Of a stretch of 64,000 nt of DNA, positions 10,159 to 60,567 are shown piece after piece. The notes below the pieces were generated by a model. It did not search any database and had not been told where the DNA came from. It saw nothing but the letters and a program-made list of their open reading frames with translations. Source of the stretch: Minisyncoccota bacterium. Its GTDB lineage: Bacteria > Patescibacteriota > Minisyncoccia > Phycocordibacterales > CSBR16-193. The stretch is taken from contig JBBDRA010000002.1 in assembly GCA_040905715.1 (NCBI GenBank), positions 3,746 through 67,745 of the forward strand, in the 5' to 3' direction. Numbering within the stretch: position 1 is the first letter of the stretch; every line of letters starts with the position of its first letter. A program made the translations under genes and the position numbers.

Positions 10159-10596
10159 AGTAGATTTACTCCTTCAAATGATAAACATGACCACTATCGT
10201 TGCATGCTGTGCCCATCCGTCTTTCAAGCAATACGTAAGATCCTTACTATAAAGTAAAGATGGCTATTACTGACTTTTTATTACACTTCACTCAAAAAAC
10301 AACTGCCAAAAAAGATCTATTAGTACGTATTTCAAAACCGATCAGCACTCAAACAGCACACTGAAGTAAAGCAAAAGTAAAGATAGCGGCAACCATAAAA
10401 CCACGCTAAAAGCATGGACTATTCGACCGATAAACCTTAAGACAACAAACAAGGCACATTTAAAAAAACTCTTTATATAAGGCATATTTTCCCTTATATA
10501 ACACCTTGTCCCGTCAGAAACTATTGACATTCTTGCGCATAAAGGCACAATAGTAGAGTCTAAAACCCGCGAGGTTTTTTCATTTTCCCCCGGTGT

Positions 10597-19901: not shown

Positions 19902-19956
19902 TACCTCCCTATTGTACCGCAGATCCGCGCAACCGTATGTTGAAAACCATTCAAAT

Positions 19957-19990
19957 AAAAACAGCTCGGTAGCACCGAGCTGTTTTTATT
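19957..19990. terminator. bidirectional terminator
   Basis: AAAAACAGCTCGGT-agca-CCGAGCTGTTTTT. Confidence 0.6.
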
Positions 19991-20458: not shown

Positions 20459-20746
20459 TTATGAATTTGAGGCCTTTTTTTCTTCCCGATCCAGCTCTGC
20501 CATCGCCTCACTTTCCTGCTTATCAATATCGCCCAGAAGCTTCATAGCCTCATCGAGTGTTTCGGCGTACTCTTCATTAAGATCGGTCATATACTGCATA
20601 TACGCGACCAGCATCTTCACCACCTGCTCACCCTGCTCCTTATCGCTTATCGGCCGGGAAACCAGCTCCTGGATCGCGACCTTCGCTTCGTCAAACTTCT
20701 CTTGTTCTAGAAGCGCTTTAACATCTTGAGTGACAGTGTTACTCAT
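20459..20746 (-). CDS. small alpha-helical hypothetical protein
   Basis: About 95 aa. The start at 20746 (MSNTVTQDVKALLEQ...) abuts the stop of the upstream 957-aa gene. Confidence 0.4.
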   Translation of the reverse strand: MSNTVTQDVKALLEQEKFDEAKVAIQELVSRPISDKEQGEQVVKMLVAYMQYMTDLNEEYAETLDEAMKLLGDIDKQESEAMAELDREEKKASNS

Positions 20747-23612: not shown

Positions 23613-23658
23613 ACTACGGTAAGTATATCAAATGAAGGCCTATTATGATGAGGATAAC

Positions 23659-39720: not shown

Positions 39721-41679
39721 TTAATCAACAATAACCACCTCGTTATAGTCCCAGCTTCCCCGGCGATAAGGCGCAGTATCACCAAGCTTGGTATTTTCAA
39801 TATAGATATCCTTCACCGGTAATTCGGTCACGCCGAAGACTCGGCCGTGGAACCACGAATCTTTCACTACAAGATGGTCAGCTGATTCAATAGTGAGCGA
39901 GTGTGGCCACCACTTATCTTTTTCCTCGTGTCGATTTGAAAGCTCGATATTAACAAAGGCAATATCTTTGTCTGTGTCCCCTCCCATAAAGAACCCTTGG
40001 GAATGAATATCCTTTGTTGCTGTCACGCCGTATGCGATCTGATTCTTTGATGAGCCCAAAAGTTGATACACGTCGGGGTGTGCGGTTGGTACACCAGACT
40101 TATCACGGTCGACATCTTCCACTGAACTATTGAGCAGCAGTCGAGCATTAGTGAACGAGTCCTCACCGATACGATGAAGGTCCGTATTTCGCACAATGTT
40201 CCCGCTAAATCCTTTAACATTGTTCGTCAAAGAAGAATTCGTAATATGCGTACTAACCACGTCTGCGGACCAGCGAACACTGTTTGACCGCTCATTGCCG
40301 ACAATATTCAGATCATCCATCCAAATATGCCGGGCAAAACGCCCACCAGCAGAATGAGCATGGAAAAGGATCCCTACATCCGGCAACTGAAAGCGAATGC
40401 CACTGACCAGTAAATGATTATTAGTAAAACGTTCCTTTAAATTGTTCGTAACAATAACGTCATTCCGTGATGTGCCGGGAGCACCGGAAACGACCACCCA
40501 GGTATCACTATCAATACCTTCCAGTCTAAATCCGTCATACGTACCTGCCTGTAGATATATCACCGGCGCTCGACTACCATCGTTTTTGGCTGCCACGCTC
40601 GCCTTCCATACGGTCTTATACGGGTTATTTTTTGAGCCGTCACCGCTCTCATCCGACCCCCCAGGCGATACATAGTAGTGATCGGGGTCATACGTTCCAT
40701 TCTTGTTAACCACTAGCTCAATGCCATGCTCGCCGCGCGGAGCACCATTAATATCTCCGGCCAACACCCGTGCCACCCCTTTATTTGGATATACCACCGC
40801 CCGCACTTCAACCGGGCCATCTACGCTGAACTTAGACGCATCAAGAGTTGCCCAGTATTCCTTCACATCAGTGCGCGGATTATGAGTCATTGTAGAGACT
40901 GAAGTCCATGGACCGCCATCGACCGAAAACTCAACCCGATCGATGCTGTCTTTATGAAAAGCAACAACTCCCACATTAAATATATTGGAAAATGACTGGA
41001 ACGGCACCACATCCCACCGAGCGATCGCCTGGGCATCTTCATTCCCGATCTGGTCAGGTTGAGGGGTCTCTCCTGCAAAACCATTTCCAGGAACGAGAAC
41101 TTTTCCTTCCGGAGCAGAGGTGTCTCTTTCCTTCTCCTCTTCTTCTCTCGTATCTTCTTGTTCATCGTCACCCTGCCCACTAACACCATCGTCTTTCTTG
41201 TTGGCAGTATCGTCGTTCTCTTCTTCGTTATTTTTTTCTTTGTCTGACTCCTGATCCTCCTTATCTTCCTCGTCCGCTTCGTCTCTAGAATCTCTCTCAT
41301 CCTTCGATCCATCATCTTCCGACTCCTCTGAGTCTGGTTCATCCTGCTTCTCAACGTCGTCTTCAGATCTATCTTCACTCTCATCTGCTTGATCCGGCTT
41401 AGTATCATCTTCCTCATCATTCTGTTCCTCTTCACGACCTTCTCCATTATCAGCCGAATCTCTAGACGTTTCTTCCACTTCCTCCTCAGTTTCATCGTCC
41501 TTTAAAGCGGTCTTCTCCTCTTTGCTACTATCATCAGACTCACGTTCCTCGTGCGGCACCACCGTTAAAGAGTTAGTGTCGTCGTTTTCCGTCCCAGAGG
41601 GGTTTGATGCACCAGAAACACCCCCGGCAAGTAAAACGAGGAGGAGCATTGGAAACAGGACTGAGTTTTTGTTTGCCAT
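39721..41679 (-). CDS. secreted right-handed parallel beta-helix (pectate-lyase/DUF1565-like) protein with long acidic low-complexity linker and Ig-like domain
   Basis: Signal peptide MANKNSVLFPMLLLVLLAGGVSGAS, then a D/E-rich linker of about 170 aa. YYVSPGGSDESGDGSKNNPYKTVWKASVAAKNDGSRAPVIYLQAGTY is the hallmark start of a beta-helix domain, followed by repeated N/S-rich beta-helix rungs. It is inserted between fusA and tuf. Confidence 0.6.
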   Translation of the reverse strand: MANKNSVLFPMLLLVLLAGGVSGASNPSGTENDDTNSLTVVPHEERESDDSSKEEKTALKDDETEEEVEETSRDSADNGEGREEEQNDEEDDTKPDQADESEDRSEDDVEKQDEPDSEESEDDGSKDERDSRDEADEEDKEDQESDKEKNNEEENDDTANKKDDGVSGQGDDEQEDTREEEEKERDTSAPEGKVLVPGNGFAGETPQPDQIGNEDAQAIARWDVVPFQSFSNIFNVGVVAFHKDSIDRVEFSVDGGPWTSVSTMTHNPRTDVKEYWATLDASKFSVDGPVEVRAVVYPNKGVARVLAGDINGAPRGEHGIELVVNKNGTYDPDHYYVSPGGSDESGDGSKNNPYKTVWKASVAAKNDGSRAPVIYLQAGTYDGFRLEGIDSDTWVVVSGAPGTSRNDVIVTNNLKERFTNNHLLVSGIRFQLPDVGILFHAHSAGGRFARHIWMDDLNIVGNERSNSVRWSADVVSTHITNSSLTNNVKGFSGNIVRNTDLHRIGEDSFTNARLLLNSSVEDVDRDKSGVPTAHPDVYQLLGSSKNQIAYGVTATKDIHSQGFFMGGDTDKDIAFVNIELSNRHEEKDKWWPHSLTIESADHLVVKDSWFHGRVFGVTELPVKDIYIENTKLGDTAPYRRGSWDYNEVVIVD

Positions 41680-41789
41680 AGAATAAAATATGTGGCTGAA
41701 ATAACACATCAATCTATACTATAAAAAAAGACAAAGCGCAAGGGCTTTGTCTTTTTTGTATCTTGGTTTCTCTCTTGATCGGGCGAGAT

Positions 41790-45086: not shown

Positions 45087-45737
45087 TCAGAAAAGCGCGT
45101 TCAGGGTTTGAAAGAGGATCTGTGGATCACCGACCAGCATTCCAAAGACCGTGAAAATAGCATAGCCCAGTATATTGGTTGAGAAGAGAATAAAGATCAC
45201 CGCGATGATCAAAATAAAGCTGTACTGCTCCATGAATCGCCGGATTCCATAGTATCGTGCCGGCAGAAAGGCGAACAATACCTTCGATCCATCAAGTGGC
45301 GGCACCGGGATCATATTGAAGAGCGCAAGAACAATATTGATCAAAACGATCATTACCGAGATCTGCACCACGGCCGGTGAGAGGGTGTCGAGGGGGAGGG
45401 TGAATCGCAGAAAAAGACCGAAGACGATCGCGATAGAGATGTTAGTGACCGGACCGGCGATAGCCACCCAGAGCTCTCCCCAGCGCTGATCGCGGAAATT
45501 ATATGGATTATACGGAACCGGCTTGGCCCAGCCGATCAGAAACGGAGAGCTAGTGAGCAACAAAAGCCCTGGCAACAGAACCGATCCGACCATATCGAGA
45601 TGTACAATAGGGTTAAGCGTAAGGCGGCCCTGATACTTCGCGGTCGGGTCACCCTGCATCAGAGCAACGTATCCGTGGGCCACCTCATGAATAACCACAG
45701 ACATAATAAGAATAGCGATAAGAAAGATGATCTCCAT
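45087..45737 (-). CDS. site-2 protease family (M50-like) membrane zinc metalloprotease
   Basis: HEVAHGYVA HExxH motif within TM1, further TM helices, and GPVTNISIAIVFGLFL. Confidence 0.7.
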   Translation of the reverse strand: MEIIFLIAILIMSVVIHEVAHGYVALMQGDPTAKYQGRLTLNPIVHLDMVGSVLLPGLLLLTSSPFLIGWAKPVPYNPYNFRDQRWGELWVAIAGPVTNISIAIVFGLFLRFTLPLDTLSPAVVQISVMIVLINIVLALFNMIPVPPLDGSKVLFAFLPARYYGIRRFMEQYSFILIIAVIFILFSTNILGYAIFTVFGMLVGDPQILFQTLNALF

Positions 45738-46107: not shown

Positions 46108-46132
46108 GATATCAAATGTAGGATTGAATAAA

Positions 46133-46170
46133 AACACCGCGACAGCTAAAGCTGTCGCGGTGTTTTTCTT
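46133..46170. terminator. bidirectional terminator
   Basis: AACACCGCGACAGC-taaa-GCTGTCGCGGTGTT followed by TTTTCTT. Confidence 0.65.
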
Positions 46171-46187: not shown

Positions 46188-49100
46188 CTAAAACTCCTCG
46201 TACCGTGGATCCACAGAAATATTGATCTTGTTGTTAGCACTACCAGGCACTTCACATTCAGTATACGTACCACCGTCACTGGATACTTCGGGTGAATCTT
46301 TCTCTCCAACCGTACTGTACCGAATGTCGATCTCATCTCCGCTGGAAGAAACTTCGGATCCTTCAGGAACAGACCATATATATGTTTCCCCGCCAGGAAT
46401 CACAACCCATGTCACTGACGTATTAACAGGATAGGTATATGTTCCGTCTTCGTTTGGAAGTGGCTCACAGCTGAGAGTGGTTGACGTTTCGCAACTATTG
46501 GTCGTGACCGTAACCGAATCAGATCCATACGATTCACTCGTATTATCGCTGTTGACCGCCTCTACTTTATAAACATACTCTGTAGAAGTTGCAATTGTTG
46601 GAGGTGATGACACTGCCGGGTCTCTATATTCCGTATCAGCGACTGTCTCAAGAGATGAGAACGCTAAATCCGGTTCCGTTGACAACTTCCTAAACACCTC
46701 ATACCAGATCCCTGCTGTAGTTCCGTCCCAATCCAATTCTACGTACGCATCGTTTGCATCACAGCTTTCTGTAGCCTGTAGGTCAGTCGGCTCAGGCTCA
46801 CATACCGAAACTGATGCCGTATCTTCCACCAAAGTACCGTCTGATGCCGCCGCGCATTGCAATGTGTACTCGTATAGTGACTCGGTATTTGTTAGACCGA
46901 CCTGCGTATCGCTTCCCCCAGCAGAACTTTTGTTTCCTGTCCAATCCCCCGAGGAGGAAGAAGCGGAACAAAACTCTTCAAGCGCACCGGCGGTTTCCCA
47001 CTCCAGATCAATATCGCTTCCATATGGCACACACCCGCCCCCGTCTCCTACTGAGTTTCCGCCACTAAACGCCTCCAGATCCACAGATTCCTCTTCAAGA
47101 TAGAGGAAAGCCACGTGCGTTATCAAACCTTCCGGAATAGACGGAGAAACATTCGTCACTGAGCACCACCCACCACTGCACGTCGGCGTTATCGTGTAGA
47201 GCGCCGGATCAGAGAAGTCACAAGATTCTGTGATCTCGATACCTGTTTCAGGACTCATCTCGTATTCATCTACACACGTCGCCGCCCTAATAGTCCTGTC
47301 CGGATCGTCTTCGGCTTTAACGGTATAGGTGTACTGTTCACCGGTCGCAAGATCGCCGGCCGGTAGATCACTCCAATTCTGTGGATTCCCGTCGTACACA
47401 CCATCCGGAATGTTCATCTCTTCGTCAGGTGTGAACTCCGGCTCGAGCTGCGTATTCATCGGGACACGCACACCTCCTTCATCAACCCGGTGAGAGCTAA
47501 TATCCCCGGCAAGCGGACACAGATCGGAACCCGCTACATCTGCACTGTTTGAAATACAGATATCCATGATAACTCGGCCGAGCGCGCTAGGGAGATTAGC
47601 GTCTAACTCAGACTGACTCATCGAAGCGTAGTCATCCGAACTATATTCTACTTCAATGTAATATTCCTTGATTCGAACTTCTTTGCCTTTTATCAAAGGG
47701 ATCTCACCTTCTACAGTATCCGGTTCGAACTGTGGCTGACCGGTAACAGTATATGTCCGGTCTTCGAGGTGTTCCCACGCCGCATCAGGATCAGACAGAT
47801 CTCGCTGTTCAAGTACAATGACAAAATCATGACTTTTACCGGGAACCAGATCATCTACTTCAAATGAATACTCAACCTCACGCGCATCGACCTCGTAGAG
47901 GTCCATCCGATGAGCTTTGATATACGTACTTGCAGCGCCGTCATAAGTGGTGGTATATTCTCCGCCACTACTCCGAACATGATCAAGTCGGTTTTTTGCG
48001 TCGTTATAAAGATCGTCCGTTGTTCTTTCATCTAAGAAATCTATCTTTCTGTCGAAAGTCCAGTCAAGATCATTAGGGTCTGTGTCATCAGTTATGTTCG
48101 AACCACATCGGCCGTACAAACCGGCCCGCTCTAGATGAGAAACATATTCGGTGTACCGATCCTGATAGACATCTGGCTGACACTCGCCGTCTTCTGTTCC
48201 TTTAGTACACGAGCTTCTACTCGCCCTCCTGGCAGGACCCGTCTCACCATCATCCCGCACTGTTACCAACCTACCATCCTCATCATACTCATACCCAAGG
48301 TCCCAATCGAACTCTCGGTGTATACTACAATATCCCCACGTTCTATTTCCCGCATTATCTTCTCGCTCCCCTTCATCATACCCGACCCCACTATACTCAT
48401 CGGTATCTAAACACCTGTTTTCCCCCACATCATATTGTTCCTGCTGAGTGCGTAACCTGTCTCGATTACCTGAACTAAACTCATATCGACTTTCGTTTGT
48501 GTAAACCTGAGCATCTTGTTCATAGAAGAGATCTTCTTCCCAGGTCTCGAACCGACGCGGCTTCATATCTTCCGAAAAATGATATGTATATGCACCGCTC
48601 CAGTCCGACTGCTCAAGCTTCTCATTTATAGTCATGTCACCCCAAGAATCCATACAACTATCTATGCACTGATCATATTCATTAGAACCCCACTCATACC
48701 CTTGCTCCCAACAATGGGTATCGCAAGCATAGTATGCGTCATCCCACACTTGAAACTCTTCATTTTCATCGTAATAACCATAGCCCTCTTCAAGCCCCCT
48801 AAACCCACAGACCGGAATTTCATCTCTCACGATCGTATATTCACGTGAAATTCTCGGGTCGGGTACAATATAATTATTTGCCGACACCATTACAGGGAGA
48901 ATAGCTGCCTCACCCCACGCACCGTTTGGCGCGAGGTACTCCCCCGGCTGTGACTGGTGTTGCGAATTAAAGTAATAATATGTATGCGAGAAGCCTTCAT
49001 ACGAACTCGACCCATACCAATACCCCCACCCGTAGTAACCATACGGATCACATGTTCCGCTAGAGAATCCATCCGGTCCTAGAGCACGATCCTCATTAGA

Positions 49101-50837
49101 GCGAAGGTGGTTAACTTTCCCACGAACTTCGTGACAGAGAGTGTCTTTGGTCAAAACCGTATACGCACCACTAACGGTAAAGCTGTCATTAGGTCCATAC
49201 GCTTCTTCGGTATACGGTTTAGGGTTATTTATATGAATAACCGGAGAGAAGGTCTCGCCAAACATTAAAGCGCGCAGTGATATTTCATCAGGACCGAGAA
49301 TTATTCTTTGATCATCGATATTTATTTCAAACCCACCTACGCCGGTATCATTCCACCCACAACCGGTACAATCGCTATCGTGATCGGAAAACACCGTCTG
49401 CACCGCAACAAACGCAGCTCCGGCTACGATCAGAGCCGCAAAGAGAAGCGCGACAGGAATAGAATTTTTACCTTTTATCAATAATCCCTTTAGCTGAAGC
49501 ACAACAAGGACAACGAGTACGAGAAGTAAAACACCGACTGTTACTACAAAACCACCCCCTTCTGTATCTGTTTGCACACCAGAAACAGGGAAGAAGGTCG
49601 TGTATTCACCAAGCACTTCACCATTTTTTTCGATCTTCACTTCTACTGTTACGTCCTCATCTATCGAATTTATGAAAGACACAGGCAGCGTAACGATCTG
49701 AGAGTCACTTGTCAGATGTACCCCCTCTTGTTTTGTGTGTGCAACCTCATTTCCGGATGAGTCTTTCATACTCAAGATCATCTCAGCGTTGGTTATCTCG
49801 CTTGATGTTCCGTCTCTATTACTTCGCACGAACTCACCTTCTTCATTTCGCGTATATCGAATTCTTCCGGAGGTATCCGGAAGAGATTGTGGCCCCACAA
49901 AAAGGACGTTTATTTGAGACTCTCTTTCTTGAGGTGGCCACACTTCAGGGGTGATGCTGTAAATAGTAGCGCTCGGACCGGCAACACTGAATTGACCTTC
50001 TACAAGGGGTGTCCGCGAGACACCATTCTCATCTCTAAACTCTACACGAAACGCAAATGTTCCGGGAGCATCAGTTGGAAGTGGTATTGAAATAGTCTGT
50101 TCTTCTCCCTTCGAAAACGCAACGGTTTCCACTTCTGTCTCTTCAATAATATCACCGGCGACCGAGACCTTAAAAACCTGAAGATGTGGGGTAAGCTCTA
50201 TCGCTTCTTCTTGCTCATTTTCCAGTGTGACTGCTATTTCTAGGTCGTCAGAGCTTGTAACCACACCTCCAGCCTGAGGCGGCGCGCGGTCTTGTGAATT
50301 TCGAATTAATTCTGCTGAATCAATACGAACCTCCCCGCCACTTCCCCGGACCTCTACGCGAACATCTTCCCACCCCAGCAATACACCTTGTCCGGTCATT
50401 GCCTGGACCTGGATCGCGGTGTCGCTTCGGTCTACCGCCTCCGGAATCGTGTACGAAAATTCAATTTCTCGCTCTTCGCCCGGCAAAAGAAAGATCGGTC
50501 CTTCAATTATAGAACTGTATACACGATCGGCTACCTCGCCTTCACGCTCATCAAAACCGGCCACTAATGAAATACGATACTGAATATCTGTGGCAACGCT
50601 GTCGGACGTATTCTTTAGTAGTGCGGTGCCAACTGCGCGCTCTCCCGCTTCAAATACTTTAGTTTCGTTTTCAAGCTCAAGACCGATAACATGCACTGAT
50701 GGAACCACGGAACGAATTGAGTTCTGCTGTTGCGCTGCTGCTTCAGTTGTATTCGATACAACTAAAAATGTAAAAAGGAGAAAAAATATCACTACAAGAA
50801 AAGCAACAAACGAAAGAACGGGGGTTTTAAAGATCAT
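46188..50837 (-). CDS. giant (1549 aa) surface protein: N-terminal signal/anchor, ~420-aa domain, two-helix TM hairpin, large Cys/Tyr/Asp-rich region with FN3-like domain, conserved C-terminal domain ending VDPRYEEF
   Basis: Uninterrupted 4.65-kb ORF. N-terminal hydrophobic VLSFVAFLVVIFFLLFTFLVV. Central VVTVGVLLLVLVVLVVLQL-KGLLIKGKNS-IPVALLFAALIVAGAAFVAV forms the TM hairpin. An FN3-like segment reads AYVELDWDGTTAGIWYEVFRK. The C-terminal ~95 aa are homologous to the C-terminus of the adjacent 1223-aa ORF. Confidence 0.8.
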   Translation of the reverse strand: MIFKTPVLSFVAFLVVIFFLLFTFLVVSNTTEAAAQQQNSIRSVVPSVHVIGLELENETKVFEAGERAVGTALLKNTSDSVATDIQYRISLVAGFDEREGEVADRVYSSIIEGPIFLLPGEEREIEFSYTIPEAVDRSDTAIQVQAMTGQGVLLGWEDVRVEVRGSGGEVRIDSAELIRNSQDRAPPQAGGVVTSSDDLEIAVTLENEQEEAIELTPHLQVFKVSVAGDIIEETEVETVAFSKGEEQTISIPLPTDAPGTFAFRVEFRDENGVSRTPLVEGQFSVAGPSATIYSITPEVWPPQERESQINVLFVGPQSLPDTSGRIRYTRNEEGEFVRSNRDGTSSEITNAEMILSMKDSSGNEVAHTKQEGVHLTSDSQIVTLPVSFINSIDEDVTVEVKIEKNGEVLGEYTTFFPVSGVQTDTEGGGFVVTVGVLLLVLVVLVVLQLKGLLIKGKNSIPVALLFAALIVAGAAFVAVQTVFSDHDSDCTGCGWNDTGVGGFEINIDDQRIILGPDEISLRALMFGETFSPVIHINNPKPYTEEAYGPNDSFTVSGAYTVLTKDTLCHEVRGKVNHLRSNEDRALGPDGFSSGTCDPYGYYGWGYWYGSSSYEGFSHTYYYFNSQHQSQPGEYLAPNGAWGEAAILPVMVSANNYIVPDPRISREYTIVRDEIPVCGFRGLEEGYGYYDENEEFQVWDDAYYACDTHCWEQGYEWGSNEYDQCIDSCMDSWGDMTINEKLEQSDWSGAYTYHFSEDMKPRRFETWEEDLFYEQDAQVYTNESRYEFSSGNRDRLRTQQEQYDVGENRCLDTDEYSGVGYDEGEREDNAGNRTWGYCSIHREFDWDLGYEYDEDGRLVTVRDDGETGPARRASRSSCTKGTEDGECQPDVYQDRYTEYVSHLERAGLYGRCGSNITDDTDPNDLDWTFDRKIDFLDERTTDDLYNDAKNRLDHVRSSGGEYTTTYDGAASTYIKAHRMDLYEVDAREVEYSFEVDDLVPGKSHDFVIVLEQRDLSDPDAAWEHLEDRTYTVTGQPQFEPDTVEGEIPLIKGKEVRIKEYYIEVEYSSDDYASMSQSELDANLPSALGRVIMDICISNSADVAGSDLCPLAGDISSHRVDEGGVRVPMNTQLEPEFTPDEEMNIPDGVYDGNPQNWSDLPAGDLATGEQYTYTVKAEDDPDRTIRAATCVDEYEMSPETGIEITESCDFSDPALYTITPTCSGGWCSVTNVSPSIPEGLITHVAFLYLEEESVDLEAFSGGNSVGDGGGCVPYGSDIDLEWETAGALEEFCSASSSSGDWTGNKSSAGGSDTQVGLTNTESLYEYTLQCAAASDGTLVEDTASVSVCEPEPTDLQATESCDANDAYVELDWDGTTAGIWYEVFRKLSTEPDLAFSSLETVADTEYRDPAVSSPPTIATSTEYVYKVEAVNSDNTSESYGSDSVTVTTNSCETSTTLSCEPLPNEDGTYTYPVNTSVTWVVIPGGETYIWSVPEGSEVSSSGDEIDIRYSTVGEKDSPEVSSDGGTYTECEVPGSANNKINISVDPRYEEF

Positions 50838-50984
50838 ACTAAAACATAAAGATTATCTTCCATACTATCTATAGTAATACTATTTCAACACATTACCAAT
50901 AGCATTATCCACTACTCATTGTGGCCAACATTTCCTTAGACAGTGCAAACAGAACCTAGCATTATTATAAATTTTAAAAGAAAT

Positions 50985-51024
50985 CACAAAAGAACCCCGC
51001 AGGATCCTGCGGGGTTCTTTTGTG
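50985..51024 (-). terminator. strong terminator after the second giant gene
   Basis: CACAAAAGAACCCCGCAGG-atc-CTGCGGGGTTCTTTTGTG. Confidence 0.65.
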
Positions 51025-51041
51025 ATATTATGCGTTTGTTC

Positions 51042-54000
51042 TTAAAATTCCTCGTAACGCGGATCAACAAAGATCTGTATTTCACCTTCGCATCTACTTC
51101 CATCATCTAGCACTGCATCAGCATCTATTGTACCTACTGTACTATATCTAATTATTATATTGTTCTCAGTTTCACCATCAATTTTACTTTCGTCTTCGTT
51201 ATCACTCCACTCTACAAATTTACTGTCGGGGCTCGCCACCCAGGTAACTTGTGAGTTAACCGGCGCACGGCCGTCTTCTATCTCATTTCCGTCACTGTCT
51301 TTGAAGGTCACCGTACATCCTCCACCAATTGGCGGCACAGGGCAGGACGGATCCTCTTTTTTACACGGACCCCAACCCTGCCAATCCCCCCAATCCCCAC
51401 CAGAGGAGCACTCTCTCACACGGGTCTGGTCACCATCACACCCGTCTATGGTACATTTCTCAGTTTCGTCCTGTGTTTTCCCTGGTGTACACTCATCGTC
51501 AGGGACCCCATCATCACCATCGCCATCACCATCACCGTTATCATCATCGTCATCGTCGATCGGACAGTCGGGATTAACCTTTTCAAGACCCTCACACTCG
51601 CCCCAAGCAAATGAGCCATCACCATTCTTCGGCCAAACTCCGTCCGCTGTACACACAATGGTCTGGCTCCCTTCCAAGTCGCAACCATCACCATCTTTTT
51701 CTCCACATGAGCGCTGCATTGTGTCACCAGGCTCACACATATCATCGCCGGCGATCGTCAACCATCCCACATGATGTCCGACGGGTTCATCGAGCCACGG
51801 CATGGTCTCGTCACTAAATTCTTCGAAGTACGCGTCACCTATGTACATCTCCATTACATTTGAGTCAGGCTCGAGTGAGTCCGTAACATAATCATACCCT
51901 TCTTCGTCACCTACCATTGTGTAACTTCGCTCTTGGGTTTGATAGTCCGGATACCCCCATGGGTCACAGTACTCTTCTCCATCGTATTCATAGCAGTACT
52001 CAGAATACGTGCCATCCCATGTAATGATCTCTACTTTAAGAGTTTCTTCTACATTTTCAGCTAAGCGTCGAGCTCTGATAATGAAATCCGATCCGTTTGC
52101 GTTCGCCGACGACCGATTTCTCAGATATTCAGGAAGATAATAGTATGCGTATCCGCCGCCGCCATCACCATACGAGAGATACTCAGCCTCGTCTTCGCTG
52201 TACCCCTGATCTAGGCGATCAGCTTTTCGATCGGCGCGTTCACTGGCCACCCTACTCCTGTCGCTTGCAAGGTCCCCCTCTAGTTCATCTCTGGCATCTT
52301 CTAACGTAAGCTCATCCGAGAGCTGAATATCACTGAAACCACTATGAGAACTCCAAACACAGTTTCCCCAAACACATGAGGAACCGGAGTGCTCTCCTGA
52401 AAATCTGCGTCGAGTTTCAGTTTCAATACGATCATTTTCTTCATCTATATCGCTATGCCCCTCTCCTATATACACACCATTGTACATAGGTGCGGTGTCG
52501 TTAGTGGTACCTGAGTCTATAACTTCACCTCGACTTATGCGTTCCCAAGAACAGGATATGTCAAGTTTGCCTTCTTCAAGATCCTGCCCTACATCACTAC
52601 AATCCGATTCCCTTACACCCGTTCCTCCATACGATTTTTTAAAAACATCGTAACTACCAGAACCGGACACATTCGTAATCACACACCTATCTTCCTCTTC
52701 ATCGAAACTCCACTCCCGAGTAAGATTACCTGAGTGAGTTCCTTCCCGAGACCCATCAGCCCACGACCTTTCAAACGTATCCGAACCGGATTTAGCTTCT
52801 GTCTGAAACAATCGCCGACTGTCTTCTCCGTCAACCTCAAAACCGTTACGCCCACAAAATGTCGGTCTGGCGTTATACGGATCATGCCTGAAGCTCACAG
52901 TGGGACGAGGGATCGCGATGTTCTTAATATCGATCGTCACATCATAACGACCGATATTAGGAGGAAGTCCGTAAATAGAACCTCGAGGAGCCCGGTACTT
53001 CCAAAGACCACCGTACGTGCTGTAACGATCGAACTCTTCGTTTACATACCTGCTTTCGCTCGGCACGTACATACCTTTCCCTTCCACCTCAACTCGCTGG
53101 CCTGCGCCGCCAGATATCGGAGGCCGCTCGATGAAGACCCGTATGGCCGTAGTTTGATCGCCCGATAAATGAACGGTTTTACTTGGAGCAACATCAACCA
53201 CCTCGATCGGGATCAGGTTTACTCCAAGAGGATACTCGAGCTCAAAGAACATTCTATACGCTGACCCATGATCAGCGAAAACAAAAGAGTAAGAAACCGC
53301 GAAAACAACAAGGATCCCGAGTCCAGCCATCGTTTTTTTGAGACCACGACGCAGTAAAGCCAGGAGAGTAAGAGCAAAGAGTAGTCCTGCCAGAACAACA
53401 GCGGTCCAAAAAATAAATAGCCAATAGCTTCCATTAAGTCCTTCGCCGGTAGAAGAAGAAAGGTCTACGCTTTTCTCACCAATAACTGATCCGTCCTTAT
53501 AGATCTTTAGTTGTACACTATTTGCGGTGGCGAGTTCAGTTACCGGAACATCAAGCTCCATCAACCCCTGTCCTGAAAGATCCAGACTCTCAAATGTCTC
53601 TTCATGTACCACATTTTTACTTTCATCAAATAAAACAAGTGTGGCGGCAACCGAGCTTACGTCCCCGTGATCATCGGGATATACAGGGTTGTTATTATCA
53701 TCTACGATAATAACTGACCCCGGTCTGCCAATATCTGCAGGAGGTCCTTCATACACAGCGGTCACTATCCCACTTCCGGAAGTCGATATGTCTTCCTTGT
53801 TTGACCCAAGTAAATGAAGTGTCACGAAATCACCTCGCACAATATACCGAAAATTAACCGCCGGGGAACGAACTTCGCCCGTCTTGGCATCAACAAATCT
53901 TAATTCACCGGCATACACCCCAGACTCATAGAGATCTCCTCCGTTGAGCTGAGAGGTTGGCAGCTCATACAAGTATGAATAACTATCACCTGAGGAAACT

Positions 54001-54713
54001 GTTATTGAGTCACGGGTGGTGGTATGCGGGTCGCCGGCTGGGTGAACATCATACAGCCGTATTTCTGGAACAACCTCGATAGACTCATCGTATGGATTGT
54101 GTATTGACCCCTCTATGGCAGGTCGGTCACCTCGTGACTGGTACACGCTCGGTATATCAAAAATGTCATATTCTGAAACCCTGTTTCCCGGATGACGCAC
54201 AACTAATGACGCACTCTCTGCTGGAAGCAGGGAGTTCTCCCCGTCAACAATGATGTTCTGCTCTGCATATGAGCGCACCTGCCCGCTCGGGAGTGCCGCG
54301 AGAACCGAGAGAACGACCTGATCGCCGGCAACATGCCGGGGAAGTTTATATGAGAAAGAGATCGTTTTACTCTCATTCGGACTCAAAGAAATCGGCTTAC
54401 TTGAAACATATTCGATGACCGAGTGTCCTACCCCTTCCACAGGAGCTTCAATGCCCACGTAGTACACTGCGTCTGGAATTGAAAATGAGTTGGGATTTTC
54501 TACAACCAATGACCCTTCGATCGTATCGCCGGAAGCGAACGTATTTGTAGGTAAGGGCTCAATAGCAACTTCCAAACCTGGAAGCGATTCGGCACTCTCG
54601 CTTTCTGATACCTGTCCGTACACCGGTAGCGTAACGGTGATAAGCGTGATCACCGCAAGAGCAAGACTGATCAAAACAATATTCAGTCGAAAAAGAGAAG
54701 CGAGGGAGTTCAT
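51042..54713 (-). CDS. giant (1223 aa) surface protein, paralog of 46188..50837: same N-terminal anchor, TM hairpin at the same position, Cys/Asp-rich modules including a poly-Asp/Gly-Asp stretch, and a conserved C-terminal domain ending VDPRYEEF
   Basis: N-terminal hydrophobic segment. KTISFSYKLPRHV matches REIEFSYTIPEAV in the paralog. TM hairpin LFIFWTAVVLAGLLFALTLLALL-RRGLKK-TMAGLGILVVFAVSYSFVFA at aa 429-480. DCPIDDDDDDNGDGDGDGDDGVPDDECTPG. C-terminal ...IRYSTVG...VDPRYEEF. Confidence 0.8.
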   Translation of the reverse strand: MNSLASLFRLNIVLISLALAVITLITVTLPVYGQVSESESAESLPGLEVAIEPLPTNTFASGDTIEGSLVVENPNSFSIPDAVYYVGIEAPVEGVGHSVIEYVSSKPISLSPNESKTISFSYKLPRHVAGDQVVLSVLAALPSGQVRSYAEQNIIVDGENSLLPAESASLVVRHPGNRVSEYDIFDIPSVYQSRGDRPAIEGSIHNPYDESIEVVPEIRLYDVHPAGDPHTTTRDSITVSSGDSYSYLYELPTSQLNGGDLYESGVYAGELRFVDAKTGEVRSPAVNFRYIVRGDFVTLHLLGSNKEDISTSGSGIVTAVYEGPPADIGRPGSVIIVDDNNNPVYPDDHGDVSSVAATLVLFDESKNVVHEETFESLDLSGQGLMELDVPVTELATANSVQLKIYKDGSVIGEKSVDLSSSTGEGLNGSYWLFIFWTAVVLAGLLFALTLLALLRRGLKKTMAGLGILVVFAVSYSFVFADHGSAYRMFFELEYPLGVNLIPIEVVDVAPSKTVHLSGDQTTAIRVFIERPPISGGAGQRVEVEGKGMYVPSESRYVNEEFDRYSTYGGLWKYRAPRGSIYGLPPNIGRYDVTIDIKNIAIPRPTVSFRHDPYNARPTFCGRNGFEVDGEDSRRLFQTEAKSGSDTFERSWADGSREGTHSGNLTREWSFDEEEDRCVITNVSGSGSYDVFKKSYGGTGVRESDCSDVGQDLEEGKLDISCSWERISRGEVIDSGTTNDTAPMYNGVYIGEGHSDIDEENDRIETETRRRFSGEHSGSSCVWGNCVWSSHSGFSDIQLSDELTLEDARDELEGDLASDRSRVASERADRKADRLDQGYSEDEAEYLSYGDGGGGYAYYYLPEYLRNRSSANANGSDFIIRARRLAENVEETLKVEIITWDGTYSEYCYEYDGEEYCDPWGYPDYQTQERSYTMVGDEEGYDYVTDSLEPDSNVMEMYIGDAYFEEFSDETMPWLDEPVGHHVGWLTIAGDDMCEPGDTMQRSCGEKDGDGCDLEGSQTIVCTADGVWPKNGDGSFAWGECEGLEKVNPDCPIDDDDDDNGDGDGDGDDGVPDDECTPGKTQDETEKCTIDGCDGDQTRVRECSSGGDWGDWQGWGPCKKEDPSCPVPPIGGGCTVTFKDSDGNEIEDGRAPVNSQVTWVASPDSKFVEWSDNEDESKIDGETENNIIIRYSTVGTIDADAVLDDGSRCEGEIQIFVDPRYEEF

Positions 54714-54937: not shown

Positions 54938-55849
54938 ATGAACCAGAGTCAATGGAGTGTACTGATATTGCTAATGATGATCATTGCTATACCGCCTACT
55001 ACGTACGGTCAACAGCAACCAGAAGTGATCGACGGACGCAGGTATGTCCGAAGAAATCCGGACTTTATTCCCACCCTTCTTGTCAACGACCCTCAACGGA
55101 TACAAGGGTACGTGGATATCCAACTTATTGGGGTTAGCGATGACAGGTTTTCTGACAATCCGGTGTACGGACATCCTATTGCCGATAAAGATATTCGCGA
55201 AATGGTCGAGCGGATATTTATTCAGGCAGGCATTGCTGTAAATTGGCTTCCACCGAAGAAATGGAACCACTCCCCGATCGAACACCGAGACATTGACCCA
55301 TTCGAAAACTCGATCGAATTCTTTCAACTCGCGGATCGACACGGAGAACGTCATCCAAGAGACACCGTGCTGCACTGGTACGTCATCGATCACTGGGACG
55401 ACCACCCCGAACGATGGGGTGCGGCAAGACACGCTATCAGTCCGCCGGAAAGCCCGATCAAGGGTATCGTGTACCATGTGGACATAGAAAACCACCTCAA
55501 CAGACATCCTGGCGCAACAGACATGAGGCGCGAACGCATGATCATTGCCCGCGCACTTGCCCAAGGACTATGCTTCGTTATGGGGCTCGAACCGTACAAA
55601 AAACCGGAGGACCCTGATAATGAAAGCTGGAGGGACAACCTTGAGCAAAACCTGATGGGGGTGCGTCCGGCAAGTTATATGTTGGCAAGCTACATGCTTG
55701 TGAACGGAAGACCGCCACGACCTCACGAGATGGAGCGCACAGAAAACGGTGTACCCAAAATTTTTGCCAACCCGGAGATATTTGCCAAAATTGAAGAAGA
55801 GCAAGCAGGAAAACTTCGGGAAAGTGAACTCGTACGCCCGGCTCAATGA
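54938..55849 (+). CDS. secreted hypothetical protein
   Basis: Signal peptide SVLILLMMIIAIPPTTYGQ, AAGGAG SD 7 nt upstream. No catalytic motif recognised. Confidence 0.5.
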   Translation: MNQSQWSVLILLMMIIAIPPTTYGQQQPEVIDGRRYVRRNPDFIPTLLVNDPQRIQGYVDIQLIGVSDDRFSDNPVYGHPIADKDIREMVERIFIQAGIAVNWLPPKKWNHSPIEHRDIDPFENSIEFFQLADRHGERHPRDTVLHWYVIDHWDDHPERWGAARHAISPPESPIKGIVYHVDIENHLNRHPGATDMRRERMIIARALAQGLCFVMGLEPYKKPEDPDNESWRDNLEQNLMGVRPASYMLASYMLVNGRPPRPHEMERTENGVPKIFANPEIFAKIEEEQAGKLRESELVRPAQ

Positions 55850-55925: not shown

Positions 55926-56813
55926 CTAACACGTCACACATCTCACCTCTTTTCCGTCACTTTCGAACGTCACCGTTCCAACTTTTGCTGTTTGCACCAC
56001 TTCGATCCCGAACTGTGCCAGCCGATCAAGAACCTCCTGGTGCGGATGCCCATAACTATTATCTTCTCCCGCCGAGATCACAGCGTATTCCGGCTGACTC
56101 CAGCCAAGCCAGGACAGGGCTGTTGAGGTGTCCGAGCCGTGGTGGCCGACCTTGAGTACGTTGCTTTTAATATTTTCCCGGTAGGTGCGGGCAATATATC
56201 TCTCTACCACCTTGGGCGCATCGCCGGAGAGGAGAAACGCCGTATCTCCATACACCAACCGCCCTACGATCGAGGCGTCATTGGGGTCCATACCCTCAGG
56301 GTCGACCGGCGGGAACAGCACATCGAAATGAACCCGGGGCGAAAGACGAATGCTATCGCCGGATCGAAGCTCGCGCACCCGCACGTTCTGCACCTCTGCG
56401 TCGTTCAACAAAGCATCATCAAGTGAACTTTCACTTGAAACTCCTGAGTGTAAAAGAGACCCAACCGAGTAGCGACCGATCACTGCCGGTAAACCACCAA
56501 TATGGTCAGCGTCCGGATGGGTTGCTAATACAACATTGATCGACCGGTCCCAGAACGGCATCGCCCCACTCAGACCGTGTGTTACTCGCACGCTTCTGCT
56601 GCCGTCTATCAACATTTGATTACCGTTCGGAGCTTCAATATAGATGGCATCACCTTGGCCGACATCGAGAAAGGAAACAACGAGCGTATCTTTTGTAGAT
56701 TCATTGAATAAAACATAATATAAAAATGCGGTGAGAACGATCAGTGCTATCGTCACAATAATGAGCGGATTCTCTTTCAGCAAGGACGCACTTTCTTTTC
56801 GGGGCATGTTCAT
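55926..56813 (-). CDS. membrane-anchored metallo-beta-lactamase-fold protein resembling the C-terminal domain of ComEC/Rec2
   Basis: N-terminal TM LIIVTIALIVLTAFLYYVLF. VSFLDVGQGDAIYIE, LATHPDADHIGG and VGHHGSD match the ComEC-type MBL motifs. Confidence 0.7.
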   Translation of the reverse strand: MNMPRKESASLLKENPLIIVTIALIVLTAFLYYVLFNESTKDTLVVSFLDVGQGDAIYIEAPNGNQMLIDGSRSVRVTHGLSGAMPFWDRSINVVLATHPDADHIGGLPAVIGRYSVGSLLHSGVSSESSLDDALLNDAEVQNVRVRELRSGDSIRLSPRVHFDVLFPPVDPEGMDPNDASIVGRLVYGDTAFLLSGDAPKVVERYIARTYRENIKSNVLKVGHHGSDTSTALSWLGWSQPEYAVISAGEDNSYGHPHQEVLDRLAQFGIEVVQTAKVGTVTFESDGKEVRCVTC

Positions 56814-56939: not shown

Positions 56940-57611
56940 ATGCGTTATGTTGCTCTTTTTATTATGCTCCTTGGCATTGGTATCCAAAGCAGCTGCACCA
57001 CCACGACGCTGTATATTGCCCCGGCGCAGGAACGCAACCGTCACGCGAATCGTGCGTATGCAACCGTGATCATCCGCAGCGACGACGGAAACGCTACCGG
57101 GGTCTGCATCACACCGACCCACATCCTCTCGTGCGCGCACGTTATTGGAGAGCGAGACACGATCGAGATCGAGTATCACAGTGGTGAGCGAGTAGAAGCA
57201 AAGGTCGTTCACACAAACACCGAGGACGACCTCGCGCTTCTCTCAACGCCCGGCAGGATACATCCGTTCTATGCCCGGACGATCGGCGAGCTCCCGGCGA
57301 ATGGAACAGAGGTGTATACCGTTGGTCACCCTCGCCCTGTTAGATTCGGCTACAGCGCGGGAACGCTTATGCGCGCGACCAACAGCGAGATGCTTATCAG
57401 TACGTACTCGAACAAAGGTGCCTCCGGAAGTGGTGTGTGGCACGAGGATCGTCTTATCGGAATACTGTACGGAAGCTCGTTCTTTGCCGGTACTACTATC
57501 CGAGAGGGCTCGCTCTGCACACCGTCGTCAGCTATCATCCGTTTTCTTGAGCACGCGCAAAAGAATGGAATGGTTTCACCGACAGCGTTCGATGCTCTTT
57601 TGTCAAAATAA
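56940..57611 (+). CDS. secreted trypsin-like (S1) serine protease
   Basis: Signal peptide. Catalytic triad context ITPTHILSCAHV (His), DLALL (Asp) and GASGSGV (Ser). Confidence 0.7.
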   Translation: MRYVALFIMLLGIGIQSSCTTTTLYIAPAQERNRHANRAYATVIIRSDDGNATGVCITPTHILSCAHVIGERDTIEIEYHSGERVEAKVVHTNTEDDLALLSTPGRIHPFYARTIGELPANGTEVYTVGHPRPVRFGYSAGTLMRATNSEMLISTYSNKGASGSGVWHEDRLIGILYGSSFFAGTTIREGSLCTPSSAIIRFLEHAQKNGMVSPTAFDALLSK

Positions 57612-58981: not shown

Positions 58982-60526
58982 CTAGGAAAGTCGATCTGCC
59001 AACGACGACATACCGAGCTTGAGTTGACCGCGGCTATATAAGTAAATACACCACACACCAAAAAGCAGGTAGACACCGATCGGTATCCAGATCGATATCG
59101 GCGGCACGGTAACATGAGAGAGTGGCAGCGCGTTGAACGTTTCCACGACAAACAATACGTAGCTAAGAAAAACATACGCGAGACCGGCAACCGGCAGCGC
59201 GAGCACAGGTGAAACCATTCCAGCCAACCCGGCAAGAAAACTAAACAGCATTGCTCCGGCGACTGCCGGAAGCGCCAATAAGTTCACGGGTATAGAAACA
59301 AACGAAAGGGAGCCGGTCATATAAATAAGGAGCGGCCACACCCCGAACTGCGTAGCGATAGTCGCTGTCGCGATCTCCCGCAAGCCCAGCGTCTGTGGAA
59401 CAAACCACAGCCACCGCTCGACAACCGAACCCAACAAGACCAGTCCAAGTGTTGCCAGTGCAGAAAGTTGAAAGGAAGGATCGTGAAGAAGTATCATCGG
59501 ATTGATAAACACCATCACCATTGCCGCGAGCACAAGCGCCCGAAGTGCATGCGAGTGATGTCCGGAGAGATGAGCCACAACAACCAGCGCCGCCATGATC
59601 GACGCACGCACTACCGTTGCTCCCCCGCCGACCATAATGGCAAATAAAATAATACCGCAGACACCGGCGAGTGATCGCCATCGTAAACCCACCCGCGCAT
59701 GTTTAAGAAATGAAATAAGCGCGACCGCGATCAGTGTTACATGAAATCCTGAAAGCACTACTATGTGTACCAGTCCGGTGTCGCGGAACAACTGCTCCAC
59801 CTCATCGTTTAGTGTGTCACGAGCGCCCACCAACATACTGTTGGCAAGCGATGCGTGCGGATCAGGAAGTACACGTGTAACACCGCTCATGAACGTATGC
59901 TTTATAAAAAGAAGAGAGGCGACAACAACATTTTTTTCATCTGAACCAATACGCTCGATCCGCGGAAAATACATCACGTGGAAGATACTGTCTTTTGCAA
60001 GAAACGTATCGTACTTAAATACCCGACCGGTATCTGTCTCGAACGGTTCGGGTGCTCGAAGCTCTCCGATTATCTTAAGGCGATCACCGTACGAATACGT
60101 TGAGTGAGACTGTGCGGAAACGCGTACCCGAGTCCCGGCCGGAACTTTCTTTATTTGGCCATCTTCTTGATGTAGTTGATCGATCGAAACTATGAGCGTC
60201 GAACTATTTCCACCTGCCACCACCTCTTCGTCCACCACGCCTGAGAGTACAACCTCATCACCAACCCACCTGTCGAGTTCTGACTCTTGGGACCACACGC
60301 TCATGAGTGTATACCGACCGACACCGATCGAGACGCACACAAGCAAAACGGCAACAACTAAAATTGCGGCACCCTCTGCACGCACAACCGTTCTTCGGTA
60401 AACCAGAACACCAAACGCGATCACCAAAAGTGCTCCGGCAAAATACCACGCAAACCCGGCCAGCGTCGCTACGGTAACACCGGTCAAAAATCCAACACAG
60501 CTTCCGTAAAACAAATACGCATTCAT
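58982..60526 (-). CDS. comEC: ComEC/Rec2 DNA-uptake channel (DUF4131 + competence domain), lacking the MBL domain
   Basis: Multiple TM helices with competence-domain signature DTGLVHIVVLSGFHVTLIAVALISFL. An N-terminal OB-like region precedes it. Confidence 0.8.
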   Translation of the reverse strand: MNAYLFYGSCVGFLTGVTVATLAGFAWYFAGALLVIAFGVLVYRRTVVRAEGAAILVVAVLLVCVSIGVGRYTLMSVWSQESELDRWVGDEVVLSGVVDEEVVAGGNSSTLIVSIDQLHQEDGQIKKVPAGTRVRVSAQSHSTYSYGDRLKIIGELRAPEPFETDTGRVFKYDTFLAKDSIFHVMYFPRIERIGSDEKNVVVASLLFIKHTFMSGVTRVLPDPHASLANSMLVGARDTLNDEVEQLFRDTGLVHIVVLSGFHVTLIAVALISFLKHARVGLRWRSLAGVCGIILFAIMVGGGATVVRASIMAALVVVAHLSGHHSHALRALVLAAMVMVFINPMILLHDPSFQLSALATLGLVLLGSVVERWLWFVPQTLGLREIATATIATQFGVWPLLIYMTGSLSFVSIPVNLLALPAVAGAMLFSFLAGLAGMVSPVLALPVAGLAYVFLSYVLFVVETFNALPLSHVTVPPISIWIPIGVYLLFGVWCIYLYSRGQLKLGMSSLADRLS

Positions 60527-60567
60527 AAAATAAAAAACGCCGACAGGCGCTTAGTTCAATACTACCT

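Follow-up and report, generated by a model that had tools for sequence, protein, structure and literature searches.

Two neighbouring minus-strand genes in a 64,000-nucleotide stretch of a Minisyncoccota bacterium (contig JBBDRA010000002.1; the whole stretch is referred to as the window) encode giant proteins of 1549 amino acids (aa; gene A, 46188-50837) and 1223 aa (gene B, 51042-54713), as delimited in the list of open reading frames (ORFs). Based on profile searches, hydropathy analyses, structure prediction and comparisons to related loci, we propose, with a probability of roughly 0.6, that A and B are bipartite surface proteins composed of an anchor half and a cargo half, in which the second transmembrane helix (TM2) of a central hairpin serves as an internal signal peptide and the cargo is held via its C-terminal tail. 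The hairpin would then not be just an anchor: its second helix is signal-peptide-like and probably cleaved, making each gene an anchor-plus-cargo pair, with A a fused member and B a second, anciently diverged tandem member. The most informative new result is the occurrence of fused and split anchor-cargo organisations in the same family, which implies an internal signal peptide.

Genes A and B within a family of the Parcubacteria group

A profile built from the N-domain, the hairpin and the C-domain was searched exhaustively with HMMER against 1.84 billion cluster representatives. It matches 551 of them at E ≤ 1e-3, of which 355 remain at E ≤ 1e-10 and 54 at E ≤ 1e-30. In nearly every case the best match spans profile positions 1 to ~460, i.e. 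the N-domain and the hairpin, and is located at the N-terminus of a protein of 400-3000 aa. The named members originate from Paceibacterota, Yanofskybacteria, Nomurabacteria, Taylorbacteria and unclassified Parcubacteria/Patescibacteria metagenome-assembled genomes (MAGs), and their records describe them either as hypothetical or as "fibronectin type III domain protein". The N-module and C-domain hidden Markov models (HMMs) of the family match gene A at E=2.5e-95 and E=1e-17, and gene B at E=2.1e-88 and E=1.6e-14, respectively, and both proteins combine the N-module profile with a mid-protein hairpin that has a basic loop and with a P/G-x-Hy-x-E-[FI] tail. Searches of full A and B against Pfam, NCBIfam and PDB sequences give nothing significant, and ten further members are without Pfam coverage of the N-module or the hairpin. 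Judged by these profile matches, A and B are members of a large family that is specific to the Parcubacteria group and absent from Pfam and NCBIfam.

The public record of protein A comprises only a hypothetical protein of a Candidatus Paceibacterota MAG and two Logan assemblies. A metagenome scan yields only three short loci, and a pattern scan of GTDB genomes (VDPRYEEF plus PVN[TS][SQ]VTW) gives 33 chance matches and no confirmed relative. Giant variable surface proteins with Ig-like domains are already known in ultrasmall bacteria; full-text literature searches retrieved no description of the anchor module, the hairpin or internal signal peptide, the fused and split organisation, or the C-terminal tail of this family.

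The shared architecture was counted in the top 150 representatives together with A and B (n=152). An N-terminal signal-type segment is present in 129/152, and 136/152 possess exactly two mid-protein hydrophobic segments, with a later segment almost never detected. The N-module is Cys-free in 114/115 sequences and the post-hairpin part averages 3.0% Cys, with occasional PKD, CARDB, Flg_new/Flg_new_2, SprB and BNR-like matches in the cargo regions. In most fused members the ~100 residues past TM2 (~485-582 in A) form a conserved domain with the consensus P..F..N.P......PG..F...G......C.N ... F..G.FTAP..PG.Y, and the N-module HMM match in A reaches ~residue 582. This post-hairpin domain is an alternative candidate for contact with the anchor.

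The hairpin and its second helix

Both proteins start with a signal peptide of 33 residues, identified by hydropathy and predicted to be cleaved, with the junction ...SNTTEA↓AAQQQ in A (50739-50837; hydropathy peak 3.28; arrows mark predicted cleavage) and ...LPVYG↓QVSE in B (54615-54713). The preliminary description of these genes, made from the DNA sequence alone, reported a pair of hydrophobic helices separated by a basic loop at ~430-480, which is borne out by hydropathy in both proteins and by AlphaFold2 helices in B. TM1 of A (residues 430-449, 49491-49550) appears as a very hydrophobic stop-transfer helix with a Kyte-Doolittle peak of 3.50, followed by the basic, predicted cytoplasmic loop KGLLIKGKNS (450-459, 49461-49490) and by the signal-peptide-like TM2 (460-484, 49386-49460; peak 2.72), which ends in ...QTVFS↓DHDS, a candidate signal peptidase I site. 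The B hairpin (430-480, 53274-53426) is composed of TM1 at 430-454, the loop RRGLKKTM at 455-462 and TM2 at 463-480, ending in ...SFVFA↓DHGS. Hydropathy detects no hydrophobic segment downstream of the hairpin in A or B (after residue ~485). In the family, loops are short (median of 9 residues) and basic (median net charge of +3, and at least +2 in 111/115 sequences); since a basic loop is a positive-inside signal, both large parts are placed outside the cell, as originally suggested.

The two helices differ in character. Median 17-residue Kyte-Doolittle peaks are 3.24 for TM1, 2.54 for TM2 and 2.25 for the N-terminal signal, and TM1 is more hydrophobic than TM2 in 89/94 members, the pattern expected of a stop-transfer anchor followed by a signal-like segment. 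TM2 also carries the elements of a Sec signal peptide, namely basic KGLLIKGKNS, a 25-aa h-region and V-F-S↓D in A, and basic RRGLKKTM, an 18-aa h-region and V-F-A↓D in B. When scored in an 18-residue window at the end of the hydrophobic segment, A-x-A is found after TM2 in 67/126 sequences (53%) and at the N-terminal signal peptides of the same proteins in 65/141 (46%), as compared to 7/126 (6%) after TM1 and 5-7% in random windows (Fisher's test of TM2 vs TM1, p=8e-18). The consensus past TM2 is A-x-A↓[FYW]-T-[VI]-T. A prepilin-like nature of TM2 was rejected, as no G↓FTLxE is found at loop-TM2 junctions.

Several representatives stop directly after TM1 and a K/R tail. For such loci the next gene is predicted to encode a signal peptide plus cargo, and this prediction held in three independent locus sets (loci are given as L numbers, representatives as P numbers). 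In L018 and L019, from two samples, gene 1 (P0147, 479 aa) ends in ...LVSLVYKRRFTYKRK-stop, and gene 2 (704 aa) begins 1 nt later with the N-terminus MKINRSNLVKRLLK-ITFFSALFISIGFYVY-KEAVPTFA↓TT; the L018 gene 2 harbors the family post-hairpin domain (E=4.4e-11) mid-protein, after BNR-like repeats, and terminates in ...CRSNPGYREI. In L020, gene 1 ends in ...LVYLIYKRK-stop and gene 2 again begins 1 nt later, with MNRIKHFFTRK...SIISSVSA↓DAY. Gene 1 of L021 and L022 ends in ...AFVINKRHG-stop and is overlapped by 8 nt by a gene 2 of 3251 aa, with the N-terminus MDNYRYQQWLGWGRSLIGALFAVTVLWLATPTPVQA↓YAS. P0095 adds a fourth case with an overlapping downstream gene, known from the gene overlap alone.

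The split point is exactly the cytoplasmic loop, and the family is thus found in fused and split forms. The split genes demonstrate that the two halves can be separate polypeptides with TM2 as the counterpart of an N-terminal signal peptide, i.e. that TM2 is equivalent to a signal peptide. In the fused forms, signal peptidase I probably cuts after TM2, to judge from the motif at this position. Combined, the split genes and the A-x-A after TM2 make an anchor-plus-cargo pair, fused in the window, the best reading.

The proposed anchor and cargo halves

The Cys-free N-module spans residues 34-429 in A (49551-50738), where it is defined by BLASTP to B, the family profile and zero Cys, and likewise residues 34-429 in B (53427-54614). 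AlphaFold2 modeling of B residues 30-490 with a 67-sequence alignment (mean pLDDT 88.1, pTM 0.79) yields three beta-sandwiches (~48-157, 165-292 and 298-417) and helices 426-455 and 459-489; by homology to B, the A N-module is predicted to comprise three beta-sandwich domains as well. CARDB/NEW3-type beta-sandwich proteins with a C-terminal membrane anchor and V. cholerae RbmA display low TM-scores to the N-module (0.2-0.4) and, unlike the family, are not coupled to cargo. Pfam CARDB (PF07705) does not match A or B, and hhalign comparison of the N-terminal alignment to the CARDB/BatD region of a GH113 protein encoded in the window is not significant.

The cargo regions follow the hairpin. In A, residues 485-1456 (46470-49385) are variable, acidic and Cys/Tyr/Trp-rich, with the conserved post-hairpin domain at the start and FN3/Ig-like modules near the end, and in B, residues 481-1132 (51318-53273) are variable, Cys-rich and acidic. 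There are 28 Cys past the hairpin in A and 22 in B, and zero within residues 31-420 of both.

The C-terminal domain and its tail

The C-terminal PKD-like domain occupies residues 1457-1549 of A (46191-46469) and 1133-1223 of B (51045-51317). Both proteins end in VDPRYEEF-stop (46191-46214 and 51045-51068), which is not found elsewhere in the window in any of the six frames. Alignment of the last 100 residues of 43 family sequences gives the consensus C..P......VN..VTW.........Y.W..G.......Y[ST]T.G.K...V.V.....C.....V...P.[FY].E[FI]. Pfam PKD_4 (PF18911) matches 9/43 of these C-domains, the best at 1.1e-7, and its cut-off of 27 bits is exceeded by P0003 (37.8) and P0028 (30.5). Individually, the A domain is matched only by PKD_6 (E=0.069) and the B domain has no PKD match in Pfam (PF00801 PKD, PF18911 PKD_4). 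Matches of the family profile include Ig domains from Hoc of phage T4 (E=4.7e-5) and, at 0.06, the PKD domain of ColH; an AlphaFold2 model from a two-sequence alignment is unusable (pLDDT 34). On profile evidence, the C-terminal domain appears, at the family level, to be a divergent PKD/Ig-like domain. The homology of the A and B domains stands (E=5e-9), but they probably do not represent an orphan fold.

The tail was analyzed in 130 long family representatives and has the general form P/G-x-[FYW]-x-E-[FI]-COOH. The last residue is F in 38 and I in 34, the penultimate residue is E in 98/130, position -3 is F, Y or I in 67/130, position -5 is P (59) or G (32) in 91/130, and position -9 is V or I in 74/130. 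An E followed by a hydrophobic end is observed in 52%, as compared to 1.1% expected by composition. The hexapeptide pattern occurs at 45 exact C-termini and at 37 of 133,072 internal positions, a ~1245-fold enrichment at the terminus, so the tail cannot be ascribed to internal PKD repeats. The same VDPRYEEF closes P0032, a protein of another Paceibacterota MAG, and P0003 has DPRFQEF at its end. N-module identity among A, B and P0032 amounts to only 22-25%, which makes the tail the best-conserved element of the A/B/P0032 clade.

A C-domain of this type is also present in a protein with a different N-terminus. Two genes downstream of P0032 (L003), a Glug-repeat protein, whose sequence is interrupted by a 10-N scaffold gap, has an ordinary signal peptide (...LHSAYS↓FEG) and neither N-module nor hairpin, but the C-domain profile matches its very end (E=7e-15), which reads RFNPNYIEL. 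From this single example, the tag is separable from the anchor. A word-indexed search with the 105-aa C-domain found nothing, and also missed P0001, an entry of the searched database that contains the exact query and terminates in VDPRYEEF, so this result is not used as absence; repeated with the 43-sequence C-domain profile, this insensitive search returned only two fragments.

The tail does not correspond to any known sorting signal, as the preliminary description had proposed: NCBIfam sorting-domain models do not match A, B or the 43 family C-termini, and no hydrophobic segment follows the motif, which excludes LPXTG and exosortase-type tripartite signals. Specifically, a sortase substrate was rejected since a late transmembrane segment is absent from A and B and almost absent from the family, and A and B end in ...DPRYEEF, and exosortase, archaeosortase, rhombosortase and myxosortase domains were rejected since there is no NCBIfam match and no terminal transmembrane segment. 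The C-terminal domain (CTD) of the Bacteroidota type IX secretion system (T9SS) was also discarded, with no match to Por_Secre_tail and no T9SS genes seen among the window ORFs scanned. The additional claim that the C-terminus is a dedicated signal is upheld in that the tail extends beyond the two genes (98/130), is terminal and occurs on one anchor-less protein, but only the tail of ~6 residues is special, not the domain. As N-terminus, hairpin and C-terminus jointly define one family, a tag common to many unrelated proteins is not (yet) shown. Consequently, the dedicated signal has withstood a comparison to known sorting domains and to a simple recent duplication, and is unproven.

Divergence of A and B

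The similarity of the N-terminal anchor regions of A and B described earlier is confirmed by BLASTP (A residues 2-411 vs B 7-413, 22% identity, E=4e-15), including the early segments REIEFSYTIPEAV (A) and KTISFSYKLPRHV (B), which align and represent a family-wide FSYxLP motif. The last ~80 aa are 43% identical (E=5e-9). No significant similarity is detected by BLASTP between the middle regions, which cannot be aligned, in agreement with the divergent Cys-rich middle proposed to lie between conserved ends.

At the codon level, 4/8 codons of VDPRYEEF and 5/7 codons of IRYSTVG differ synonymously, and identical non-M/W residues of the C-domain use the same codon in only 10/33 cases. Synonymous differences reach a proportion (pS) of at least 0.75 in every aligned A-B region, and the nonsynonymous divergence (dN) is lowest in the C-terminal domain (0.54), followed by the hairpin (0.79) and the N-domain (1.02). 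Synonymous sites are saturated and the duplication is therefore old, and retention of the peptide despite synonymous codon differences indicates that the shared ends are maintained by selection on the peptide. The codon differences and saturated pS also rule out recent gene conversion as the source of the common tail. Besides the A-B pair, no other paralogues or internal repeats are found within the window.

Gene A is followed by a bidirectional terminator hairpin (46130-46167; 17-bp stem, 9 GC pairs) that is common to a convergent L28-like gene, and gene B by an intrinsic minus-strand terminator (50983-51026; 20-bp stem, 10 GC pairs, then a T run). As each gene has its own strong terminator hairpin behind it, A and B are separate transcription units. 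The Logan assemblies L001 and L002 both end at ~50996, in the loop of the palindromic terminator between B and A, probably as an assembly artefact of the perfect hairpin; because assemblies break inside this terminator, A and B are located on separate contigs in public records.

Genomic context and the type IV pilus

No sortase, signal peptidase or secretion gene consistently adjoins family members in the neighbourhoods examined. A sortase or dedicated secretion component was hence not found beside the genes, neither in the window nor in other member neighbourhoods. An M50 peptidase (45087-45737) and a trypsin-like protease (56940-57611) were rejected as processing enzymes, as only proximity supports them and neither is common to the neighbourhoods of other members.

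Tandem member pairs recur, namely A-B and a pair in L009 (1359 and 1806 aa, both N-module profile-confirmed); the P0150 locus contains an unannotated 1544-aa neighbour whose family membership is not confirmed. Four loci (L010, L012, L015 and L017) share the order nusA (divergent), family member, pilB, pilC and pilins, with members of 764-3024 aa, and the two L009 members are located behind pilB-pilC-pilin-pilD-pilins. The pilus link is real for a part of the family and is so far not evident for A and B. Around the members P0003, L011 and the P0150 locus, no pilus genes are found within reach. A type IV pilin or pseudopilin identity of the family was rejected, since the prepilin regular expression matches only the small neighbouring pilin genes.

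Two further features were observed at member loci. The pilus locus of P0167 also encodes a 968-aa giant modular pilin (L017, 24335-27241, plus strand), in which a prepilin N-methylation motif is followed by Flg_new and Fib_succ_major modules. A diversity-generating-retroelement-like pair of a bAvd accessory protein and a reverse transcriptase (L004, 4746-6154) is located ~4 kb upstream of P0162.

Other genes in the window

The S10-spc-str ribosomal protein region is part of the same window. A 665-aa secreted protein (39724-41718, minus strand) is encoded within the str operon, which is conserved apart from it, with fusA (EF-G) on one side and tuf (EF-Tu) on the other; it shows only weak DUF1565 and Big_7 matches, and is present in the Logan contig L001 as 642 aa without a Pfam family. 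Next to gene B and divergent from it is a signal-peptide-bearing 303-aa orphan (54938-55849, plus strand) with no Pfam match and no similarity to A or B. Two further secreted envelope proteins are encoded on the minus strand at 1112-2200 and 8080-10173, one with a peptidoglycan-binding domain and a dockerin-like C-terminus, and the other a GH113 glycoside hydrolase that continues into BatD- and CARDB-type sandwiches.

ComEC is apparently split into a metallo-beta-lactamase domain of 295 aa (55926-56813, minus strand) and a Competence/DUF4131 channel of 522 aa (58985-60550, minus strand), 2 kb apart on the same strand, with plus-strand genes for a trypsin-like protease and a response regulator in between. 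A 950-aa TraG/VirD4-like coupling-protein ATPase (TraG-D_C, TrwB_AAD_bind) adjoins a 962-aa ORF without Pfam match (17136-19985 and 20742-23627, both minus strand). These two may be part of a monoderm-type type IV secretion system, which excerpts of a previous study report for Patescibacteria (PMC12102498).

Discussion

We propose that A and B reach the cell surface via the following route. The precursor would be exported by Sec through its N-terminal signal-type segment, which would be removed, and the three-sandwich module would fold outside the cell, in line with the fold prediction and the topology signals. TM1 would then stop translocation, leaving the basic loop in the cytoplasm as expected from its positive-inside signal, and TM2 would restart Sec translocation of the Cys-rich cargo, a role suggested by the signal-peptide equivalence seen in the split genes. 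Cleavage by signal peptidase I is likely behind VFS in A and behind VFA in B, with the predicted neo-N-termini DHDSDC... (DHDSDCTGCGWNDTGVGGFEINIDDQR) and DHGSAYR..., respectively. This cut would release a hypervariable, disulfide-rich, acidic cargo that ends in the PKD-like domain and a free tail. The cargo would be held at the surface with the PKD domain and the tail as the best retention or sorting candidates, and the tail may bind the conserved anchor module or some other partner in the envelope or pilus. The cargo would finally contact host cells or surfaces, as judged from the domains it contains, from how variable it is and from published work on surface proteins in the Candidate Phyla Radiation (CPR) (PMC4736985, PMC6792436), and is most likely an adhesin or another contact protein at the cell surface. 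It is also conceivable, although in our view somewhat unlikely, that the family constitutes a self-contained display system, in which signal peptidase cuts a common precursor into a membrane-anchored receptor of three beta-sandwiches and a secreted cargo, and where the tail is a tag without a transmembrane helix that docks cargos, including the Glug protein, onto the anchor or onto a pilus or envelope partner.

A number of observations weigh against the bipartite, tail-held arrangement. A and B have V-F-S and V-F-A rather than the A-x-A that is commoner in the family, and the conserved aromatic residue has another position with respect to the putative site; part of the motif could therefore stem from the first strand of a juxtamembrane domain. 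Docking of the tail to the anchor module is purely inferential. Among 290 ORFs of at least 150 aa in the fetched loci, the tail pattern is found outside the family only in the Glug-repeat protein, and this protein carries NPNYIEL, not DPRYEEF, in the P0032 genome, which argues against a strictly sequence-specific common receptor. Furthermore, no pilus genes are present near A and B in the 64-kb window or near P0032, and the selection of the syntenic pilus loci relied in part on a single motif (FRYIV[AG]GD), so these may be one orthologous lineage. The lack of a perfect A-x-A in A and B would also fit with uncleaved, hairpin-anchored adhesins, in which two ectodomains are carried on one hairpin and the tail, rather than being a sorting or retention signal, caps the last PKD domain structurally or helps it to bind a ligand. 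The topology signals are just as compatible with such proteins, TM2 exceeds the N-terminal signal peptides somewhat in hydrophobicity (medians of 2.54 vs 2.25) and in length, and the fused form is by far the commonest (~136/152 sequences). We nevertheless regard the uncleaved form as unlikely, since A-x-A after TM2 reaches the level of real signal peptides, ~9-fold over controls, since natural split versions are separate polypeptides with TM2 as N-terminal signal peptide, and since the ~1245-fold enriched tail at the exact C-terminus is also present on a hairpin-less protein.

Alternatively, the family may represent a component or passenger of the type IV pilus, e.g. a pilus-presented adhesin, with the tail being recognised by pilus proteins. 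The conserved order of nusA, member, pilB, pilC and pilins in four loci in spite of the length range of 764-3024 aa, the L009 pair behind a pilus operon, and the central role of type IV pili in host binding that excerpts of PMC11623550 ascribe to cultivated Patescibacteria all speak in favor of this view. We consider it improbable, as A, B, P0032, P0003, the P0150 locus and L011 are without pilus genes within reach, as family members lack a prepilin motif and show an extreme variability of length and sequence that is atypical for a machine component, and as the syntenic loci may be one lineage. A simple recent tandem duplication of an orphan gene, with the shared ends due to recent ancestry or gene conversion, would be consistent with the adjacent positions, the same strand and the common ends of A and B, and had been raised in the preliminary description as an explanation that would refute its reading; it can practically be dismissed considering the pS of at least 0.75, the 10/33 same codons, the unalignable middles and the hundreds of homologues with the same features in other genomes.

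Several known systems resemble parts of the bipartite arrangement. In the flavivirus C-prM-E-NS1 polyprotein, internal signal sequences are cleaved by signal peptidase. As in the family, a hairpin of a stop-transfer and a signal-like helix is used, with a signal peptidase cut on the outer side that parts two ectodomain proteins, but the system is viral and operates in the eukaryotic endoplasmic reticulum, and the cleavage is only predicted here. To our knowledge, no bacterial surface-protein family built with such an internal signal peptide has been described. LPXTG, PEP-CTERM, PGF-CTERM, PEF-CTERM, GlyGly-CTERM and MYXO-CTERM proteins share with the family a short C-terminal motif on hypervariable surface proteins with several copies per genome. 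However, the sortase, exosortase, archaeosortase and rhombosortase signals are tripartite, composed of a motif, a transmembrane helix and a basic cluster, whereas the motif of the family is the free C-terminus, located after a folded PKD-like domain and with no hydrophobic segment behind it. The Bacteroidota T9SS CTD is similarly a C-terminal beta-sandwich of the Ig-like type, 80-100 aa in size, on large secreted or surface proteins, in which the CTD itself is the signal. By contrast, the conserved element in the family is the terminal hexapeptide after a PKD-type domain, and T9SS depends on PorU/PorV and on an outer membrane, and occurs only in Bacteroidota. Patescibacteria-type bacteria are generally regarded as lacking an outer membrane.

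A further parallel is given by large Cys-rich extracellular proteins of CPR and DPANN organisms, for which excerpts of the studies on Peribacteria (PMC4736985) and Huberarchaeum (PMC6792436) propose a role in attachment. Compared by description only, these resemble the family in being giant, signal-peptide-bearing, Cys-rich, strain-variable and without functional annotation, but the class is defined there by size and composition, and these excerpts do not mention an N-module, a hairpin, an internal signal peptide or a tail.

In conclusion, two orphan giant genes have become a definable family of several hundred sequence clusters, with a clear architecture, a predicted processing step and a short, searchable C-terminal signature. 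Separation of anchor and cargo by an internal signal peptide would be an uncommon way to make a bacterial surface protein, for which the natural fused and split gene versions provide a ready-made evolutionary test. Patescibacteria (CPR) are estimated to account for approximately a quarter of bacterial diversity (PMC11452946, in excerpt), and all cultivated representatives grow attached to host cells according to passages of PMC11623550, yet little is known about attachment outside Saccharibacteria. A link of A and B to an episymbiotic lifestyle, as suggested in the preliminary description, is plausible, and one lineage beside pilB/pilC ties the family to the type IV pilus, the one attachment organelle whose importance in cultivated relatives has already been demonstrated. 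Provided that the tail serves as a tag for retention or sorting, it would permit a simple listing of the surface-displayed proteome and represent a type of sorting signal without a transmembrane helix. Should the display-system reading hold, the tag would be the Parcubacteria-group counterpart of LPXTG or the T9SS CTD, and would determine host attachment to a large extent.

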